Shown piece after piece: positions 22,561 to 31,452 of a stretch of DNA of 37,504 bases (position 1 is the stretch's first letter; each line of letters starts with the position of its first letter). The notes below the pieces were generated by a model. The model was not told the origin of the DNA. It searched no databases and saw nothing but the letters and a program-made list of their open reading frames with translations. Position numbers and translations under genes: made by a program. The stretch lies in IMG/VR virus record IMGVR_UViG_649989947_000021; one strand, given 5' to 3'. The DNA comes from a virus. Its lineage: Duplodnaviria; Heunggongvirae; Uroviricota; Caudoviricetes.

Positions 22561-23889
22561 CTGAGAGATCCCCTCATAATTTCCCCAAAGCGTAACCATG
22601 TGTGAATAAATTTTGAGCTAGTAGGGTTGCAGCCACGAGTAAGTCTTCCCTTGTTATTGTGTAGCCAGAATGCCGCAAAACTTCCATGCCTAAGCGAACT
22701 GTTGAGAGTACGTTTCGATTTCTGACTGTGTTAGCCTGGAAGTGCTTGTCCCAACCTTGTTTCTGAGCATGAACGCCCGCAAGCCAACATGTTAGTTGAA
22801 GCATCAGGGCGATTAGCAGCATGATATCAAAACGCTCTGAGCTGCTCGTTCGGCTATGGCGTAGGCCTAGTCCGTAGGCAGGACTTTTCAAGTCTCGGAA
22901 GGTTTCTTCAATCTGCATTCGCTTCGAATAGATATTAACAAGTTGTTTGGGTGTTCGAATTTCAACAGGTAAGTTAGTTGCTAGAACCCATGGCTCCTTT
23001 GCCGACGCTGAGTAGATTTTAGGTGACGGGTGGTGACAATGAGTCCGTGTCGAGCGCTGATTTTTTCGGCCTTTAGAGCGAGATTTATACAATAGAATTT
23101 GGCATGAGATTGGATTGCTTTTAGTCAGCCTCTTATAGCCTAAAGTCTTTGAGTGACTAGATGACATATCATGTAAGTTGCTGATAGGTTTCCAGTTTTC
23201 CGCTCCTAGGTCTGCATATTGTACTTTTCCTCTTACTCGACTTAACCAGTACCAACCCAGCTTCTCAACGGATTTATACCATGGCACTTTAAAGCCAGCA
23301 TCACTGACAATGAGCGGTGTGGTGTTACTCGGTAGAATGCTCGCAAGGTCGGCTAGAAATTGGTCATGAGCTTTCTTTGAACATTGCTCTGAAAGCGGGA
23401 ACGCTTTCTCATAAAGAGTAACAGAACGACCGTGTAGTGCGACTGAAGCTCGCAATACCATAAGTCGTTTTTGCTCACGAATATCAGACCAGTCAACAAG
23501 TACAATGGGCATCGTATTGCCCGAACAGATAAAGCTAGCATGCCAACGGTATACAGCGAGTCGCTCTTTGTGGAGGTGACGATTACCTAACAATCGGTCG
23601 ATTCGTTTGATGTTATGTTTTGTTCTCGCTTTGGTTGGCAGGTTACGGCCAAGTTCGGTAAGAGTGAGAGTTTTACAGTCAAGTAATGCGTGGCAAGCCA
23701 ACGTTAAGCTGTTGAGTCGTTTTAAGTGTAATTCGGGGCAGAATTGGTAAAGAGAGTCGTGTAAAATATCGAGTTCGCACATCTTGTTGTCTGATTATTG
23801 ATTTTTCGCGAAACCATTTGATCATATGACAAGATGTGTATCCACCTTAACTTAATGATTTTTACCAAAATCATTAGGGGATTCATCAG
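22561..23889 (-). mobile_element. IS10 insertion sequence (IS4 family), 1329 bp
   Basis: Inside end CTGAGAGATCCCCTCATAATTTCCCC at 22561 and outside end (reverse complement) CTGATGAATCCCCTAATGATTTTGGTAAAAATCATTAAG ending at 23889; full 402-aa transposase; 9-bp flanking direct repeats. Confidence 0.95.
22574..23782 (-). CDS. tnp: IS10 transposase
   Basis: 402-aa ORF MCELDILHDSLYQFCPELHLKRLNSLTLACHALLDCKTLTLTELGRNLPTKARTKHNIKRIDRLLGN..., IS10 transposase by recall. Confidence 0.95.
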   Translation of the reverse strand: MCELDILHDSLYQFCPELHLKRLNSLTLACHALLDCKTLTLTELGRNLPTKARTKHNIKRIDRLLGNRHLHKERLAVYRWHASFICSGNTMPIVLVDWSDIREQKRLMVLRASVALHGRSVTLYEKAFPLSEQCSKKAHDQFLADLASILPSNTTPLIVSDAGFKVPWYKSVEKLGWYWLSRVRGKVQYADLGAENWKPISNLHDMSSSHSKTLGYKRLTKSNPISCQILLYKSRSKGRKNQRSTRTHCHHPSPKIYSASAKEPWVLATNLPVEIRTPKQLVNIYSKRMQIEETFRDLKSPAYGLGLRHSRTSSSERFDIMLLIALMLQLTCWLAGVHAQKQGWDKHFQANTVRNRNVLSTVRLGMEVLRHSGYTITREDLLVAATLLAQNLFTHGYALGKL

Positions 23890-25260: not shown

Positions 25261-26117
25261 TATTCACACTCCCCAACCAGATTAAGAATAACCGCCGCGC
25301 CATTGTCTTTCATATATTCGCCCTTTCCGCTTGCCAAAAACCAACGACACACCTCCACTGCTTCAGCCCGTGTCACCGGTTTGATGGTCATCAGCAATTT
25401 TTCAAGGTAGCGCTCGCGGTCATATACCGATTCGTGATGCTCAGAGTAACCATACTCATCGCCCTGTTCTTTAGACGCAGTGTGGCGAACACTGTAGAGC
25501 CAGTCCCAGTAAACAAACTCACGAACTACGTCTGACAATGTATGAGGCTCTGGCAGTACATCACGATAGCCATCAACATATGCACGACGCTGATCATCAA
25601 TTTCATTCATACGGATGCCATCAATTCTGCCCGCTGTCTTCTCGGCTGCAGTCCAGCCCCAGAGATGATCGTCGATAAATTTCTGGGAAGACTTGATCAC
25701 TCGCTCGGCTTCCACATCTTCGAGTGCTGCTTCATAGCTACCAAACGTAGCCCTGACTGATGTTGCTTTTTTGATATTCTCCCGGGCGATCCTGATTGCC
25801 TGTGCCGGGTTATCCATGCCGATGGTACCGAAAGCAATCTGGAAAGGATCACCACCATTCGCCAGCAGATAACGCGAATAGCGTTCCTGGGCCTCTTTTG
25901 GGGAAATTTTAATTTTCACCAGCGCAGCCTCAGCAGCATCCAGATGTGCGGGTTCGTTCAGACGGATAACCTCCAGCACCCAAAGATAAGCATCAGTCTG
26001 CTTATGCCCGGTGATTCTCCGTTGCTCTGGCAGGGGCTTGATGTTTGCGAGGGCGGAGCTGTACGCTGCCGTCGGGATGGTGAATAGTGCTTTATGTTCG
26101 TTGTTATCAGTACGCAT
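25260..26117 (-). CDS. hypothetical protein (nin-region position)
   Basis: 285-aa ORF with stop/start overlaps to primase upstream and Q-like gene downstream. Confidence 0.5.
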   Translation of the reverse strand: MRTDNNEHKALFTIPTAAYSSALANIKPLPEQRRITGHKQTDAYLWVLEVIRLNEPAHLDAAEAALVKIKISPKEAQERYSRYLLANGGDPFQIAFGTIGMDNPAQAIRIARENIKKATSVRATFGSYEAALEDVEAERVIKSSQKFIDDHLWGWTAAEKTAGRIDGIRMNEIDDQRRAYVDGYRDVLPEPHTLSDVVREFVYWDWLYSVRHTASKEQGDEYGYSEHHESVYDRERYLEKLLMTIKPVTRAEAVEVCRWFLASGKGEYMKDNGAAVILNLVGECE

Positions 26118-27085
26118 TACGCAACCGCCTTTTTCTTATGGAAAACCAGCTCTCGAACCTGATCACCGTTCATGAGCATATTGTTGAAATCATCGTGATC
26201 CGGCCAGTACACGCTCACGCGCTGCAGGTCATTCTTTGCCATCAGATTGGCATGAGCACATTCGCAAGCCGCAGCCAGCCCGGTGGCGCTGTTCTCGTCA
26301 CGGTCGGCAAAAATAATCAGGTGCAGAACACCAGCTGGTACGCGGAACTTTTTCATAAAGCCGCTGTTAATGGTTGCCCAGGTGTTCACGTTATAAATCT
26401 GGTGCGCTGACAGCGCTGTTTCGATGCCTTCGGCGATACCCAGAGTGCTAGCAACAGGAAACATGCGGATAGCTACAGAACGAGCGTGATCCAAATAGTT
26501 ATCTTCCTGCAGGGATTTGAGGCGCTTTGCACTGCTACCGATATCTGCTTTTTTATCACCATCAAGCAGAGTCTGGTGCAGATAGCACAACTCCCCTTTA
26601 TCGTCCGTAGCAAGTGAATAAAGAGACTGGAACACACTCCCGTTGTGTCTCTGCCTGGCATTGAACCGGATCGCCTCAGCAGGAAGACTGAATATTCCAC
26701 GAGAATTAAGATACGCTGCGCCGGATGTACCACGCAGTGCCTCCAGTTTTGAAAACTTGCTCAATACCCGTTTGCGTAAGCTGGTGGCGCTGCTGGTTAC
26801 CGGGATTTTAACCCGTTGGTAATCATTACCGCTCAGGCGGTCTATTTCGGTACAAATCTCGTTAAATGGCTTCGCCTGTGTCAGGGTGACAAGTTTCATA
26901 CCATCGCCACTACCACATACACAGATCCACGTTCCTGCACCGTCGCGGTCATCAATTCGGAACTTGCCACGTGCACCGCATACCGGGCATTCACCCTTGA
27001 AGTGATTTTTTCCTGTTATCGGCGGCAAGCCGAAGTGCTCTAATATTTCAGGCCAGCGGCCTTTCGCTGCAGCTGCTGTTTTCAT
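26117..27085 (-). CDS. DNA primase (zinc-binding N-terminus plus Toprim domain)
   Basis: N-terminal CPVCGARGKFRIDDRDGAGTWICVCGSGDG zinc-finger-like motif; Toprim-like AEGIETALSA ... IIFADRDENSATG. Confidence 0.7.
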   Translation of the reverse strand: MKTAAAAKGRWPEILEHFGLPPITGKNHFKGECPVCGARGKFRIDDRDGAGTWICVCGSGDGMKLVTLTQAKPFNEICTEIDRLSGNDYQRVKIPVTSSATSLRKRVLSKFSKLEALRGTSGAAYLNSRGIFSLPAEAIRFNARQRHNGSVFQSLYSLATDDKGELCYLHQTLLDGDKKADIGSSAKRLKSLQEDNYLDHARSVAIRMFPVASTLGIAEGIETALSAHQIYNVNTWATINSGFMKKFRVPAGVLHLIIFADRDENSATGLAAACECAHANLMAKNDLQRVSVYWPDHDDFNNMLMNGDQVRELVFHKKKAVA

Positions 27086-27086
27086 C

Positions 27087-28745
27087 TTACTGACTCAAAC
27101 TGTTTATATTTTTCTGGAGTTGTTGCTTTGCTTGCATGATGCGCCAAGCCTCAGTGCCTATTGGCATCTCGCTTCGCTCACCTCGTTCCTGAGACAGAGG
27201 AATCGTTGCCTGCAATTTTTCTATAGTTCTCTGCGTCCGCTGACGGCCTTTGGCAAACCGAATCAGCTTGTGTTTGATGTAGTTACTTACTTCTGGGCTT
27301 ATTTCCATCGGGAAACTGCTCAACCCATCAGGCCATTCACCGAATTTCTCCCTGAAAGTGTGAGCACACCATCCATCACTGACTGGACGCCCCAGCGAAG
27401 CACGCTGGCGCTGATAAAATTTGATCTGACTCCACCAGGACTGTTTCTCTGCCTTCGTCGACTGATGCTGATTTTTACCCAGCTTATTAAGTTTGCGGCT
27501 AGTGTCAGTATCAACGTCTTCACCTCGCAGCGGCTTGTGTCCACATTTCGGGCAAACATAGACGCCAGCTGGCTTCATGTAGTGGCATTGAGGGCATTCA
27601 TGTGGCAGTTTTTCGGCCCGTTCCTCAACTGCGCGGCGCGCGCTTTCCTCCATGCCATCAGACTTACCGGGAAGATCGTCGTACTCGATTGAATCCGGAT
27701 AACCCAAACGGTGCACGGTGCCGCTGTGATCGAAGATAAGGCAGGACGCTTTACCCGGTGCGGTGCGCAGCCCACGCCCGAGTGCCTGCAACCAGCGAAT
27801 TTCGCTTTTTGTTGGCCTGGCGTAGATGATGCAACGAACGTCACTATCGAATCCGGCTACCAGAACGCCCACACTAACGATGATTTTCGTTGCACCGGTT
27901 TCAAAGCGGTGAATGATGGTCTGGCGCTCATCTACCGGAGTGTCGGCGGTCATTACCTCAGCGTTAACACCCGCCAAGTTAAACTGGATTGTCAGATAAT
28001 TGGCGTGAGCTACGTTGACGCAGAAAGCGATGGTAGGTAGATCCCGACCATTCTCCAGCCAGTTCTGTACGATGTCGCCCACCAGCGTAGAGCCGCACAT
28101 GATTTCAGCCAGCTGTGTTTCGTTGTAATCGCGGCCGTACTCAAGCGAAGATGTGGTTTTAACACCTTTCAGATCCGGCTTAGTTGGCGCGTAAAATTCG
28201 TATTTACTCAGATCGCCACGCTGGATTAACTCGCCGATGGTGGTCGGCTTAATCAGTCGGTCATAGTATTTGCCCAGGAACGGAGAAAACGGAGTACCCG
28301 ACAGGCCAATCACCTTTACGCCTTTGCCGCGCAGACGTTCGATATCCTTCAGGATGCGTTTTTTACGCAGGTGCGCTTCGTCGATAATCAGCAGATCGAT
28401 ATTTTCAGGAAAAACACGACGAATAAGCGTGTCAGCGCTGGCAATCTGAATTTTCCGGTCCGGATCGTAGTTCGGGTGATCCGCCCAGATATAACCGATT
28501 TCATCTCCAGGTAAACCATACTGCACGAACCGATTAGCCGTCTGACCAATCAGGATGGTGTACGGAACACAGAACAGAACACGCATACCACGGCTGACAA
28601 AACCAGCAACTATGAAGGCTGCCAGACCCGTTTTACCGCTACCTGTTGGCGAGTAAACCATGAAGGTGTCGTTTGCCTTCCAGTCACGGCGCAACATGTT
28701 TAGCGCTCGCTCCTGTGCAAAATTCGGCGTGATTGTCAGCTGCAT
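27087..28745 (-). CDS. superfamily 2 DEAD/DEAH-box helicase (replication helicase)
   Basis: Walker A VYSPTGSGKT, DEAH box LIIDEAH, helicase C-terminal motifs, C-terminal zinc ribbon CPQCHYMKPAGVYVCPKCGH. Confidence 0.8.
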   Translation of the reverse strand: MQLTITPNFAQERALNMLRRDWKANDTFMVYSPTGSGKTGLAAFIVAGFVSRGMRVLFCVPYTILIGQTANRFVQYGLPGDEIGYIWADHPNYDPDRKIQIASADTLIRRVFPENIDLLIIDEAHLRKKRILKDIERLRGKGVKVIGLSGTPFSPFLGKYYDRLIKPTTIGELIQRGDLSKYEFYAPTKPDLKGVKTTSSLEYGRDYNETQLAEIMCGSTLVGDIVQNWLENGRDLPTIAFCVNVAHANYLTIQFNLAGVNAEVMTADTPVDERQTIIHRFETGATKIIVSVGVLVAGFDSDVRCIIYARPTKSEIRWLQALGRGLRTAPGKASCLIFDHSGTVHRLGYPDSIEYDDLPGKSDGMEESARRAVEERAEKLPHECPQCHYMKPAGVYVCPKCGHKPLRGEDVDTDTSRKLNKLGKNQHQSTKAEKQSWWSQIKFYQRQRASLGRPVSDGWCAHTFREKFGEWPDGLSSFPMEISPEVSNYIKHKLIRFAKGRQRTQRTIEKLQATIPLSQERGERSEMPIGTEAWRIMQAKQQLQKNINSLSQ

Positions 28746-28795
28746 TGTGCTGTCCCCGCAGTGATGAGATAATAATTTTGTGATGTGGTTTTCAT
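28736..28795 (-). CDS. 19-codon upstream ORF overlapping the helicase start
   Basis: GAGGAGG then 5 nt then ATG at 28795; encodes MKTTSQNYYLITAGTAQCS; its stop overlaps the helicase ATG region. Confidence 0.3.
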   Translation of the reverse strand: MKTTSQNYYLITAGTAQCS

Positions 28796-28856
28796 GGATT
28801 CCTCCTCACATGGCTGGTGGTCTCCCCAAAGGCTGCCAGCCCCTTTCCGAATCAAC

Positions 28857-29225
28857 TCACTTAAATTTCGTCGCACGAATAACGTCAATTCCGTTCTCGC
28901 TATATCGAAGAGGGTGCTTACCATCCCTGAGCAGGACAAAGCCTGACATCCCCTCAGGTAGCTGAGCCAGCTTCATCAACGAACGGTTGCGGGGAGACTT
29001 CTTATCGACCTCAATGGCACACTGCTGGCCGTCTGATGATGTAACCAGGCAATCAATAAACCCTTTACGACCACCGCTAATGCTGATGCTGAAATTGCGT
29101 TGCAGATGGTATCCCTGAGACTTGATTTTTTTCTGCATCACATAATCGAAAACGACTTTGTCATCGGAGCGAATGAATTGCTCTTCCAGGAGAGTGATTA
29201 AATTTTGCTTCAGGTCTTCACTCAT
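28857..29225 (-). CDS. hypothetical protein, possible PD-(D/E)xK nuclease fold
   Basis: 122-aa ORF; motif GFIDCLV ... AIEVDKK resembles PD-(D/E)xK; weak assignment. Confidence 0.35.
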   Translation of the reverse strand: MSEDLKQNLITLLEEQFIRSDDKVVFDYVMQKKIKSQGYHLQRNFSISISGGRKGFIDCLVTSSDGQQCAIEVDKKSPRNRSLMKLAQLPEGMSGFVLLRDGKHPLRYSENGIDVIRATKFK

Positions 29226-29474
29226 ACTTTTTTATCCATCTTGTACTAGCTTTCTGGTACAGCCGTTTTTTCAGGGGTATCCCCCTTTAGATCGAGATCT
29301 ACCTAACCTATGTACCCGTCTGTTGGAAAAGCCTGTTCCAGTGCTTCGCACTAACACACGGGCACTCCTCCCCCTCCCCTCCTCTCATTGAATTTTGTGC
29401 GTACTCTTTAACTAGTACAAAAATGCAATGAGATTTGGGATTCAGCCACCGGACACCTTTAAGCCCGGTACCAA

Positions 29475-29768
29475 TCAGGAGCGCGATTGCGTTCCTGCCA
29501 GGGGCGGCTGAGTTGTATACCCCTGTAAAGCTCTGCCCTGATTTCTCACAAACAAGCGGAGCCTTGTGTTTGCTTCGTGCCTTGCTCTGTTCTCCTTGCG
29601 GAATGAAACAGGCTCAGCGTCAAAAGTGATTTCGTATACCTCCGCATATTTCAGGGCGACCTTCCGTCTCAGTGACGGAGGCAGCCCCTGTAACTGCTGC
29701 TGAATCCACTCTTCGTCTGCCTGGCAGTGCCTAGATGGCATCTCTGTCTGAACGTAATTCTGGGACAT
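29475..29768 (-). CDS. hypothetical protein in the cII position
   Basis: 97-aa ORF, 12 nt downstream of the cro-like stop, with GAAGGG ribosome-binding site; no similarity to lambda cII that I can see. Confidence 0.5.
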   Translation of the reverse strand: MSQNYVQTEMPSRHCQADEEWIQQQLQGLPPSLRRKVALKYAEVYEITFDAEPVSFRKENRARHEANTRLRLFVRNQGRALQGYTTQPPLAGTQSRS

Positions 29769-29780
29769 ACAAGCCCTTCA

Positions 29781-30053
29781 TCATTCGTTTTTCATAACTG
29801 CCGCATTTGTGGCTGTGTGACTTCTACGTAACAAATCAGGGATTGCATCTTCAGGATGGGGATAAAGATCTGGTCTTAACCCATGAGGAGTAACTTTCCA
29901 TTCCACAACTTCACATACACGCAAGACGAAACGAGCAGGAATTGTTCTTTTTGAAAACCATTGGTTCACAGCTTGCGGCGTAACGCCTAGATTTCGCGCT
30001 ATGGCATTTTGTGCAATTAGCTCACGAAGTGCGTCGTAATCATTTCCTTTCAT
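29781..30053 (-). CDS. cro: Cro-like HTH repressor (YdaS-like)
   Basis: 90-aa ORF MKGNDYDALRELIAQNAIARNLGVTPQAVNQWFSKRTIP... with helix-turn-helix; divergent from cI across an operator region. Confidence 0.7.
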   Translation of the reverse strand: MKGNDYDALRELIAQNAIARNLGVTPQAVNQWFSKRTIPARFVLRVCEVVEWKVTPHGLRPDLYPHPEDAIPDLLRRSHTATNAAVMKNE

Positions 30054-30187
30054 CGCAACCCACCAATCTAAACTTTATAAATTCAAGATTACATCAAGTT
30101 TAAATTAACATGCAAGTCCACAAAAGATCGAATACACTAAAATCAAGTAAAAATTTATCGAAACCAAGTAACCAGCAAGGATTAACA
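30054..30187. promoter_or_regulatory. OR-like region with divergent promoters and repeated AATCAAGT-type motifs
   Basis: Intergenic between cro-like (minus) and cI (plus); repeated CAAGT-containing motifs including the 13-mer AAATCAAGTAAAA at 30140..30152; candidate minus-strand promoter -35 TTGCAT (30115..30110), 16-bp spacer, -10 TGTAAT (30093..30088). Confidence 0.45.
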
Positions 30188-30877
30188 ATGAAAAACTTAA
30201 AGAGCACTGAAAATCGAATTACAAAGCTGCTACAGGAGAAAGGCTGGAGCCAAGCAGAGCTGGCCCGAAAATTAGGTGTCAGCGCACAGTCCGTACAGTA
30301 CTGGACAACAGGAAAAACATTTCCAAGGGGAAACCGGCTTGCCCAGTTATCCGAAATAAGTGGTTATCCGCAATCGTGGTTTTTAGGAGAAATCACGTCA
30401 CGGCAGTTCTCTTCAAAGGAAAAACATCAAGCAAGAACTGACAGTGTGGTCTTTAACGTGCTCGATGTTGAGTTTAGTTGCGGCGATGGAACACATGTCC
30501 GTGGGGACTTTATCGATGTAGTTCGCTCAATCGAGCTTGATCCTGAATATGCCCGTCGCCTTGTTGGCAATAGAGCATTTCAAAACATAGAGATTGGTAA
30601 CGCAAGAGGAGATAGTATGGCTCCAACAATAGCCCCAGGAGATCTTCTTTTTCTCGATAAAACAGTGAATTACTTTGATGGTGATGGCATTTATGCTTTT
30701 TGCTTTGATGGTGAATGCTACGTCAAAAGATTACAAAAGATAGGAAGTAAAATCATGGTGTTATCTGATAACCCAAATTACCAATCCTGGAGCATTGAAA
30801 AAGATGCTCTTGAGCTGCTTTATATCCAATCGAAGGTAATCTCATCTGTTCCATTCAATATAAATAGATTTGGTTAA
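30188..30877 (+). CDS. cI: CI-like repressor (HTH_XRE N-terminus plus S24 LexA-like autopeptidase C-terminus)
   Basis: HTH LLQEKGWSQAELARKLGVSAQSVQYW; C-terminal GDSMAPTI ... K motif; start set at ATG 30188 with AGGA upstream; an alternative upstream ATG at 30110 exists. Confidence 0.85.
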   Translation: MKNLKSTENRITKLLQEKGWSQAELARKLGVSAQSVQYWTTGKTFPRGNRLAQLSEISGYPQSWFLGEITSRQFSSKEKHQARTDSVVFNVLDVEFSCGDGTHVRGDFIDVVRSIELDPEYARRLVGNRAFQNIEIGNARGDSMAPTIAPGDLLFLDKTVNYFDGDGIYAFCFDGECYVKRLQKIGSKIMVLSDNPNYQSWSIEKDALELLYIQSKVISSVPFNINRFG

Positions 30878-31023: not shown

Positions 31024-31452
31024 ATGAAAGATCTGACAACCGCTGAGATATCGAACTTAAACCACTTCGAAAAAGAATCCTTTGCATTAAATATTGCAAA
31101 TCTGGTAGGTGCTGCTCGTACTTTCCATTTAATTGATGGTGATCGCTCTAAAGAATTGGGGTTTGAAGTCATGGAGTTTGTTCATGAATACGCCCTGTCT
31201 GCTACTTATCCATTACATAATCACATAATCAACAAACAACCAAATAAAATCCGCACCCAACGCGAAGCCTGCGGCTTAACAACCGCCGAACTCGCCAGGC
31301 TGCTCGATCTCGATGAAGAAATTATCATCCAGTGGGAAAGCGGAGAGTACGAACCAACCATCAGCATGCTTATCCCTCTGGCTAATGTTCTTGGCTGTGA
31401 TCCAATGTTGTTATTGACTGATGCTTATAAACAAAATCAGGAGGAAGCATAA
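31024..31452 (+). CDS. first early-left gene: protein with C-terminal HTH_XRE domain and unknown N-terminal domain
   Basis: 142-aa ORF; C-terminal GLTTAELARLLDLDEEIIIQWESGEYEPTISMLIPLANVLGCDP is HTH_XRE-like; not N-like. Confidence 0.6.
   Translation: MKDLTTAEISNLNHFEKESFALNIANLVGAARTFHLIDGDRSKELGFEVMEFVHEYALSATYPLHNHIINKQPNKIRTQREACGLTTAELARLLDLDEEIIIQWESGEYEPTISMLIPLANVLGCDPMLLLTDAYKQNQEEA

Follow-up and report, generated by a model that had tools for sequence, protein, structure and literature searches.

The DNA considered here is IMG/VR virus record IMGVR_UViG_649989947_000021, a stretch of 37,504 nt (hereafter the window) that sequence comparison identifies as a temperate phage of the phi467/Fels-1 type. 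Over the 1 kb used as query (positions 28800-29800), identity is 99.9% with Escherichia phage phi467, roughly 85% with Salmonella phage Fels-1 and roughly 76% with Klebsiella phages. Within the early-right operon of this phage, a gap of 249 nt separates two small genes, ORF97 and ORF122 (ORF, open reading frame), that precede a helicase-primase gene pair. The original prediction had pointed to a large non-coding gap inside the operon; the flanking genes do all lie on the minus strand, and the sense strand of 29226-29474 contains no ORF of 30 or more amino acids. Based on its position and architecture, we propose tentatively that this gap is a conserved cis-acting control region, most likely a replication origin, of a module made up of ORF97, the element itself, the helicase and the primase. 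The genes of the locus are as follows.

30110-30877, plus strand: repressor of the LexA/S24 type
29781-30053, minus strand: cro/YdaS-like gene
29475-29768, minus strand: ORF97 (phrog_852, no assigned function), always directly upstream of the element
29226-29474: the gap (249 nt) between ORF97 and ORF122 in the early-right operon
28857-29225, minus strand: ORF122 (phrog_1347, no assigned function), an optional insert in the interval between the element and the helicase gene
27087-28745, minus strand: SF2 (RadD-like) helicase, always downstream of the element
26117-27085, minus strand: Zn-ribbon/Toprim primase, always downstream of the element

The "Eru1" replication unit is a helicase-primase gene pair that was defined in Shiga-toxin phages (PMC8044961). 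The helicase and primase genes of the window correspond to the Eru1A/Eru1B type of that study, and the top PDB match of the helicase is RadD. No origin for the Eru1 module is described in the papers that define it (PMC8044961, PMC8951638). The gap upstream of these genes contains the following features, given in the direction of transcription.

29448-29469, minus strand: hairpin A, ACCGGGC-UUAAAGGU-GUCCGGU, just after ORF97
29401-29418: palindrome 1, GTACTCTTTAACTAGTAC on the plus strand, TrpR-operator-like, holding the right arm CTAGTACAA of an inverted repeat
29387-29433: AT-rich segment of 47 bp with 29.8% GC (window 50.5%), containing palindrome 1
29365-29386, minus strand: purine tract GAGAGGAGGGGAGGGGGAGGAG, whose conserved part is a pair of G-runs, GGGGAGGGGG, at 29370-29379 on the non-template strand
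29290-29364, minus strand: invariant core with a mini-hairpin, TTCCAACAG, a box and two GATC sites
29341-29351, minus strand: mini-hairpin GTGCGAAGCAC of class 1, between the G-runs and the box
29320-29328, minus strand: TTCCAACAG, part of the invariant core
29296-29312, minus strand: universal box CATAGGTTAGGTAGATC (CATWGGTTARGTAGATC)
29290-29293 and 29296-29299: GATC sites of the core
29262-29285, minus strand: small G/C hairpin GGGGGAUACCCC (29274-29285), then a conserved A-tract, AAAAAA (29266-29271)
29243-29260: palindrome 2, GTACTAGCTTTCTGGTAC on the plus strand, TrpR-operator-like, holding the left arm TTGTACTAG of the inverted repeat

The conservation in relatives on which the original prediction depended is clearly present. 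A gap of 240-260 bp recurs in Fels-1 and in Klebsiella phages, and a 99-nt core (29290-29388) is 91-95% identical to the window in phages of Salmonella, Klebsiella and other Escherichia coli, the relatives in this comparison having been found by BLAST and not through the core motif. In the same relatives, ORF97, ORF122, the helicase and the primase are 64-93% identical to the window, with 37-83% identity at the third codon positions of these genes (Klebsiella phages, 40-54%). The conservation of the core compared with that of the third codon positions therefore argues for selection acting directly on its nucleotide sequence. Two motif scans of IMG/VR returned 36 loci and then at least 120. The 16-nt pattern used for a scan of a genome collection was too loose, and most of the 120 rows it returned are chance matches; 18 Enterobacterales loci were usable, adding Citrobacter, Yersinia, Xenorhabdus, Atlantibacter and other Enterobacterales. 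The element's position and orientation stay constant across more than 140 loci, with an ORF97 homologue on one side and the helicase-primase pair on the other. These relatives share a phylogeny, so the sequence counts given here are not counts of independent events. One locus (L087) was discarded as a chance match. Matches on plasmids were considered as a sign of plasmid maintenance, and this was rejected because they are phage genomes deposited as plasmids. For example, several element-bearing Klebsiella "plasmids" of 37-41 kb in PLSDB, such as NZ_CP076549.1 (L267), are complete phage genomes of this family.

The feature that first drew attention to the gap was an exact 9-bp inverted repeat. 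Both arms were found as claimed, TTGTACTAG at 29241-29249 and CTAGTACAA at 29412-29420, separated by 162 nt instead of 163. By itself the repeat is at chance level, since 134 of 2000 dinucleotide-shuffled versions of the 249 nt (6.7%) contain an exact 9-bp inverted repeat. The pyrimidine tract CTCCTCCCCCTCCCCTCCTCTC reported between the arms is also present, at 29365-29386 and not at about 29366-29388, reading GAGAGGAGGGGAGGGGGAGGAG on the minus strand; this 22-nt purine/pyrimidine run is the longest in the window, and shuffles of the window reach 24. The repeat and the tract become significant only because they are conserved in relatives and match a known operator. Moreover, the repeat is not to be kept as a single long-range pair or as a transposon-like end: its arms are the shared outer half-sites of two separate 18-bp palindromes. 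Pairing between the arms was rejected, as there is no covariation and L138 has just one of the two sites.

Both palindromes resemble the operators of TrpR, the tryptophan repressor of the host. The reference operators and the aligned sites of the window are the following.

18-bp consensus, the DNA of PDB 1TRO: TGTACTAGTTAACTAGTACA
trpR operator of E. coli K-12: CGTACTCTTTAGCGAGTACAA
trp operator, read from E. coli SK1144: CGAACTAGTTAACTAGTACGCA
mtr operator of E. coli K-12: TTGTACTCGTGTACTGGTACAG
palindrome 1, plus strand: GCGTACTCTTTAACTAGTACAA
palindrome 2, plus strand: TTGTACTAGCTTTCTGGTACAG

Palindrome 1 differs from the 18-bp consensus of 1TRO at two positions and palindrome 2 at four, while the trp operator differs at one and the trpR and mtr operators at four each. 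None of 100 shuffles of the window contains a site with three or fewer mismatches, and the best background match in a stretch of 215 nt usually has 8-9. When compared with individual operators, palindrome 1 is identical to the K-12 trpR operator at 19 of 21 positions and to the trp operator at 19 of 22, and palindrome 2 is identical to the K-12 mtr operator at about 19 of 24. Two GNACT pentamers 8 bp apart, in the form GTACT-N8-AGTAC, are exact in palindrome 1 and carry one mismatch in palindrome 2, and the window has no other site of this kind; exact TGTAC-N10-GTACR sites are likewise confined to the two palindromes. The CTAG core is kept in one half-site of each palindrome, the other half-site having AGAG in palindrome 1 and CTGG in palindrome 2, and in the natural trpR and mtr operators CTAG is degenerate to the same extent. 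Of 104 distinct family members, 92 have an upstream site with at most four mismatches. Additionally, the palindromes vary among relatives in the pattern of TrpR sites, with the GNACT pentamers fixed and the centre variable. TrpR is encoded by the host species; the window and those loci of related phages that were examined lack a gene for a homologue, and no paper was found that ties TrpR to a prophage element of this kind. Because of the quantitative match to proven operators, it is fairly probable that host TrpR binds these palindromes.

Other explanations of the palindromes were considered and rejected. They are not additional immunity operators, as the cI-cro and PL regions use sites of the ATCAAG/CTTGAT type and not TGTAC. 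Neither neighbouring small protein is a suitable TGTAC binder: class-2 phages retain the sites without the ORF122 gene, and L042 has an ORF97 of 99% identity without the sites. Hairpins on the opposite strand were also rejected, given that Xenorhabdus and Yersinia swap the half-site versions TGTACTAG and TGTATCAG between arms. This exchange fits the half-site degeneracy of a site that is bound as double-stranded DNA.

These comparisons bear on the possibility that the gap has no dedicated function and is a recombination "linker" or an endonuclease target in which the TrpR match is coincidental. The flanks are indeed mosaic, the adjoining endonuclease-like genes come and go (ORF122, and a NUMOD4-HNH gene in L042), and the 9-bp repeat alone could have arisen by chance. 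Such an explanation is very improbable, however, because the core stays 91-95% identical across genera while its flanks diverge, and it recurs in more than 140 loci beside many different flanks. Moreover, the operator match is far beyond chance and shows TrpR-type variation with invariant GNACT pentamers. Homing endonucleases, for their part, pick conserved targets and do not explain why a target is conserved.

Between the palindromes lies the part of the element that varies least. The box CATWGGTTARGTAGATC is kept in the Shiga-toxin Eru1 phages, Yersinia and Xenorhabdus, despite differing flanks, and also in Atlantibacter; in Xenorhabdus it is duplicated 30 bp apart in the manner of iterons. 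The flanking repeats of the Shiga-toxin Eru1 phages read TTAGTTG...CAACTAA, and alternative flanking repeats, TAGACGTCTA, GTCTGGATGTATAGAC and GGCTAGATGT, are present in L042 (3505-3685), L134 and L138. The core is not conserved as a structure: no RNA fold is shared among six variants, none of which is unusually stable (folding z-scores from -2.0 to +1.6), and the class-2 alignment shows almost no covariation in the core. The mini-hairpin GTGCGAAGCAC has one compensatory variant, GCGCGAAGCGC, and is absent from class 2. In relatives, the A-run downstream of the core lies in the loop of a GGGCG/CGCCC or GGGCA/TGCCC hairpin. Conservation of the core as sequence and not as fold suggests a DNA element, as do its fixed place before the replication genes, its AT-rich neighbour and the duplication of the box in Xenorhabdus.

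The G tract is conserved, as the original prediction had supposed, although the relevant feature turned out to be the paired G-runs and not the polypurine tract as such. On the sense strand, all 83 distinct upstream sequences scored have the form G4-7, 1-3 nt, G4-7, and the two runs are equal in length (4/4, 5/5, 6/6 or 7/7) in 12 of 17 distinct types. The suggested G-quadruplex prediction gives a G4Hunter score of at least 1.5 at about four positions of the window, the tract being one of them, and class-2 relatives have extra G-runs and scores of up to 2.6. In every variant read, the first G-run can pair with an upstream C/U-rich segment. A literature search on the G tract gave no matches. 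Across the whole window, C-runs of at least five outnumber such G-runs by 28 to 2 on the plus strand, so that G-runs are strongly biased to the main coding strand.

The surroundings of the core have two of the properties expected of an origin. The element is located beside replication genes, always directly upstream of the helicase-primase pair, and an AT-rich region that could serve in unwinding is found at 29387-29433, where 47 AT-rich bp abut the G tract of 73% GC. This segment is bordered by a 14-nt inverted repeat (29383-29396 and 29420-29433), whose outer stem is compensated in Klebsiella phages and broken in L009 and L016. Furthermore, this module also occurs in a Vibrio phage, with a helicase of 57% identity, and there the orthologous gap has 17-bp repeats spaced 21 bp apart beside a gene annotated as RepL-like. 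GC skew was set aside, as the point at which transcription diverges is only 800 bp off.

At the upstream end of the gap, hairpin A behaves as an RNA structure. It combines an invariant 8-nt loop, UUAAAGGU (29455-29462), with a covarying stem of 6-8 bp, in which six of eight pairs are altered on both sides among 52 distinct copies (52 of 55 were kept by a filter for at least three closing pairs). Pairing was found in 84.6% of cells, compared with 68.6% after shuffling, and none of 500 shuffles reached 84.6%; in controls with the partner slid by 1-3 columns, 27-51% of cells were paired. On the operon-sense strand, the stem has 30 G.T wobbles and two A.C mismatches, and therefore hairpin A forms on the mRNA-sense strand. 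Class-2 relatives have hairpin A in two tandem copies. The hairpin accompanies ORF97 homologues with identities from about 59% upwards and is missing in L144, L173 and L066. A boxA-like sequence, CGCTCCTGA, lies 6 nt upstream of it, and the gap as a whole folds better than shuffles on the sense strand (z = -4.8). The leftward operon has no second copy of hairpin A, whose loop motif is found just once in the early region. In the leftward operon the best candidate is a hairpin within its first gene, TTTGCA-TTAAATAT-TGCAAA at 31078-31104 on the plus strand, which differs from hairpin A at two of eight loop positions; with 14 such matches in the window, it is probably due to chance. A further hairpin with a 9-bp stem, CAGGAACGC...GCGCTCCTG, at 29476-29497 (arms 29489-29497 and 29476-29484), spans the last codons and the stop of ORF97. 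Its stem shows partly compensated changes among relatives and reads GGAACGC/GCGTTCC in Yersinia phage YP3.

Hairpin A raises the possibility that the gap is a cis-regulatory mRNA leader that sets the amounts of helicase, primase and Q and has no origin function. Under this explanation, which seems possible and somewhat unlikely, hairpin A would be a boxB-like protein site, perhaps for the arginine-rich ORF97, TrpR on the palindromes would be a roadblock, dependent on tryptophan, in the path of elongating RNA polymerase, and the G-rich RNA would take part in pausing, processing or ribosome loading. The covariation and strand specificity of hairpin A, the folding of the gap, the boxA-like sequence and the pairing potential of the first G-run in all variants read are each in its favour, as is the fact that TrpR is a transcription factor. 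So is ORF97 itself, whose homologues hairpin A accompanies and which carries an invariant arginine-rich helix with the motif R-x-E-N-R-A-R-H-E-A-N-x-R-L. The predicted structure of ORF97 consists of three helices at low confidence, and the protein has no Pfam match and no PDB match by sequence or by fold. In contrast, the universal core lacks a conserved fold and almost any covariation, and the box duplication in Xenorhabdus and the iterons of the Vibrio phage point to DNA sites. The downstream terminator that would accompany a nut site is also missing: between 28700 and 30300 no sense-strand terminator was found except one inside ORF122, which leaves an antiterminator nothing to override, and there is no second hairpin copy in the leftward operon. 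Rfam searches of the whole window and of the gap gave no relevant family: no match in the gap reaches gathering score, and even E values of up to 10 yield just a 16-bit match to the DUF805 motif, whose cutoff is 51 bits. The leader and the origin are compatible, and both readings can be true.

Three options were put forward in the original prediction: an origin-like element, a structured RNA, or an internal promoter or terminator subject to regulation. The analysis favours the origin-like or regulated element and confirms that hairpin A is structured, but it found no convincing promoter or terminator on the sense strand. That the gap holds a small RNA gene or an internal promoter that TrpR can repress is unlikely. 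The candidate would be a weak sigma-70 promoter with a -35 element, TTGTAC, in the left half of palindrome 1 and a -10 element, CAAAAT, 17 nt downstream, firing into the G-runs; alternatively, a plus-strand promoter would make an antisense RNA similar to lambda oop. These hexamers can be read in the window, and class 2 has ATGTAC-16 nt-TTTTAT in their place. Palindrome 1 and the G-run pair are 20-24 nt apart in most lineages, and on the plus strand the centre of palindrome 1 is TTAACT, the -10 element of the trp promoter. Natural TrpR operators overlap promoters, which also speaks for this possibility. On the other hand, the promoter scan of the gap was empty, the hexamers are poor (3-4 of 6 positions) and lack conservation in Fels-1, the Klebsiella phages and L146, and TTAACT on the plus strand has no usable -35 element. 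As for a small RNA, the terminator scan detected a hairpin with a T-run on the plus strand at 29241-29272, spanning palindrome 2, but no known family matches. Identity with a known prophage small RNA was rejected, since the Pas/STnc100 paper cites Fels-1 only as a neighbouring-gene marker and does not cover this locus.

If the gap is an origin or control region, its parts could work together as follows. TrpR loaded with tryptophan would bind both palindromes and thereby couple the activity of the element to the supply of tryptophan, either by blocking or modulating transcription that enters the core or as an architectural factor. The invariant box would be the recognition site of ORF97, the helicase or the primase. 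Early-right transcription from PR through the G-run pair would open the region, which is the most speculative step. Paired G-runs of this geometry suffice for the formation of co-transcriptional DNA:RNA hybrid G-quadruplexes (PMC3664831), and CSB II (for conserved sequence block II) tethers primer RNA at the mitochondrial origin (PMC3488243). The likeness of the G-runs to both therefore makes an origin opened or primed by transcription an attractive mechanism, as a proposal; priming through a transcription-driven R-loop is speculative. That the element is a bacterial-virus counterpart of mitochondrial primer formation that reads the tryptophan level of the cell is an unlikely further possibility.

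A number of observations weigh against an origin under TrpR control. The window has no classical iterons or direct repeats, no conserved DnaA box and no enrichment of GATC. TrpR is known for the control of transcription initiation and not of replication, and the promoter scan of the gap found no convincing promoter over either palindrome, so that the overlap typical of TrpR operators is missing. Palindrome 2, the downstream site, is weaker in most relatives, with 4-6 mismatches and mostly 5-6. The spacing between the palindromes is 147-158 bp in most relatives and up to 174-176 bp in Xenorhabdus, and it is unphased. Other flanking sites replace TGTAC in L042, L134, L138 (on the upstream side) and L144, also in the presence of an ORF97, a helicase and a primase that share 95% identity or more with those of the window (L042). 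The element is found in Fels-1, and in Eru1-type Shiga-toxin phages it occurs without TrpR sites. The existence of relatives without TGTAC flanks implies that the TrpR sites are not obligatory. Hairpin A reflects selection on the transcript, which fits a function at the RNA level. Furthermore, a hybrid G-quadruplex may inhibit priming instead of promoting it (PMC3488243). Finally, in a difference from CSB II, the phage has its own primase, and a primer made by RNA polymerase may therefore not be needed.

The interval that separates the element from the helicase gene is a hot spot of free-standing nuclease-like genes (28857-29225 in the window, 2845-3447 in L042). The IEVDK motif of ORF122 resembles the PD-(D/E)XK nuclease motif, and its homologue in Shiga-toxin phages has a weak match to REase_MTES_1575 (E = 0.037); ORF122 has no similarity to the RepL-like protein of the Vibrio phage. 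In the E. coli prophage L042, which otherwise has genes of 95-100% identity to those of the window, ORF122 is replaced by a gene for a NUMOD4-HNH homing endonuclease. ORF122 is missing in all class-2 relatives, which are the commonest form and include Yersinia phage YP3; the slot is empty, yet the first codons of ORF122 (CTTCCTGGAAGAG) remain as a remnant. A mini-ORF, MKTTSQNYYLIT..., just upstream of the helicase start and overlapping it, is located at about 28746-28856 between ORF122 and the helicase gene (about 3576-3625 in L044) and is conserved between the window and phage YP3. It could be a leader peptide or an ORF for translational coupling. An IS10-type insertion (22574-23844) follows immediately downstream of the Q-like gene; in this insertion, a match to RNA-OUT at 23775-23844 (98.8 bits) adjoins a 402-amino-acid ORF (22574-23782, minus strand), presumably the IS10-type transposase.

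The analysis delimits a compact candidate of about 180 bp for an origin or control region, with clear parts that can be mutated. The Eru1 module is carried by Fels-1, by many prophages of Klebsiella, Citrobacter and Yersinia and by the Shiga-toxin phages of highly virulent E. coli. If TrpR does bind the palindromes, phage replication or late-gene expression would depend on tryptophan. The matched G-run pair, in turn, is a tractable bacterial system for studying how co-transcriptional R-loops and G-quadruplexes affect replication.

Compared with known systems, the palindromes share with the E. coli TrpR operators an 18-bp length and GNACT pentamers 8 bp apart, and their two and four mismatches fall within the natural range of 1-4. 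In contrast, the phage sites lie inside an operon beside replication genes, without a recognisable promoter, and there are two predicted sites about 150-158 bp apart around a conserved core. Hairpin A is similar to lambda nutR in being a short element of the early-right transcript that combines an invariant loop with a covarying stem and follows both a boxA-like nonamer and the gene of a small arginine-rich protein. It differs in being present as a single copy with no partner in the leftward operon, and in having an 8-nt loop of unrelated sequence; ORF97, moreover, has no detectable similarity to N.

The element shares with mitochondrial CSB II two long G-runs of matched lengths, 1-3 nt apart on the non-template strand, that lie downstream of a promoter, adjacent to the site of action of replication genes. 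The phage differs in relying on a multi-subunit bacterial RNA polymerase. Compared with lambdoid phage origins and RSF1010 oriV, the window lacks iterons, and the factor thought to be bound is an amino-acid repressor of the host. Like those origins, the element lies within or beside replication genes in the early-right operon, with AT-rich DNA bordering on a GC-rich block and with repeats resembling protein sites on its flanks; the orthologous gap of the Vibrio phage does have iterons.

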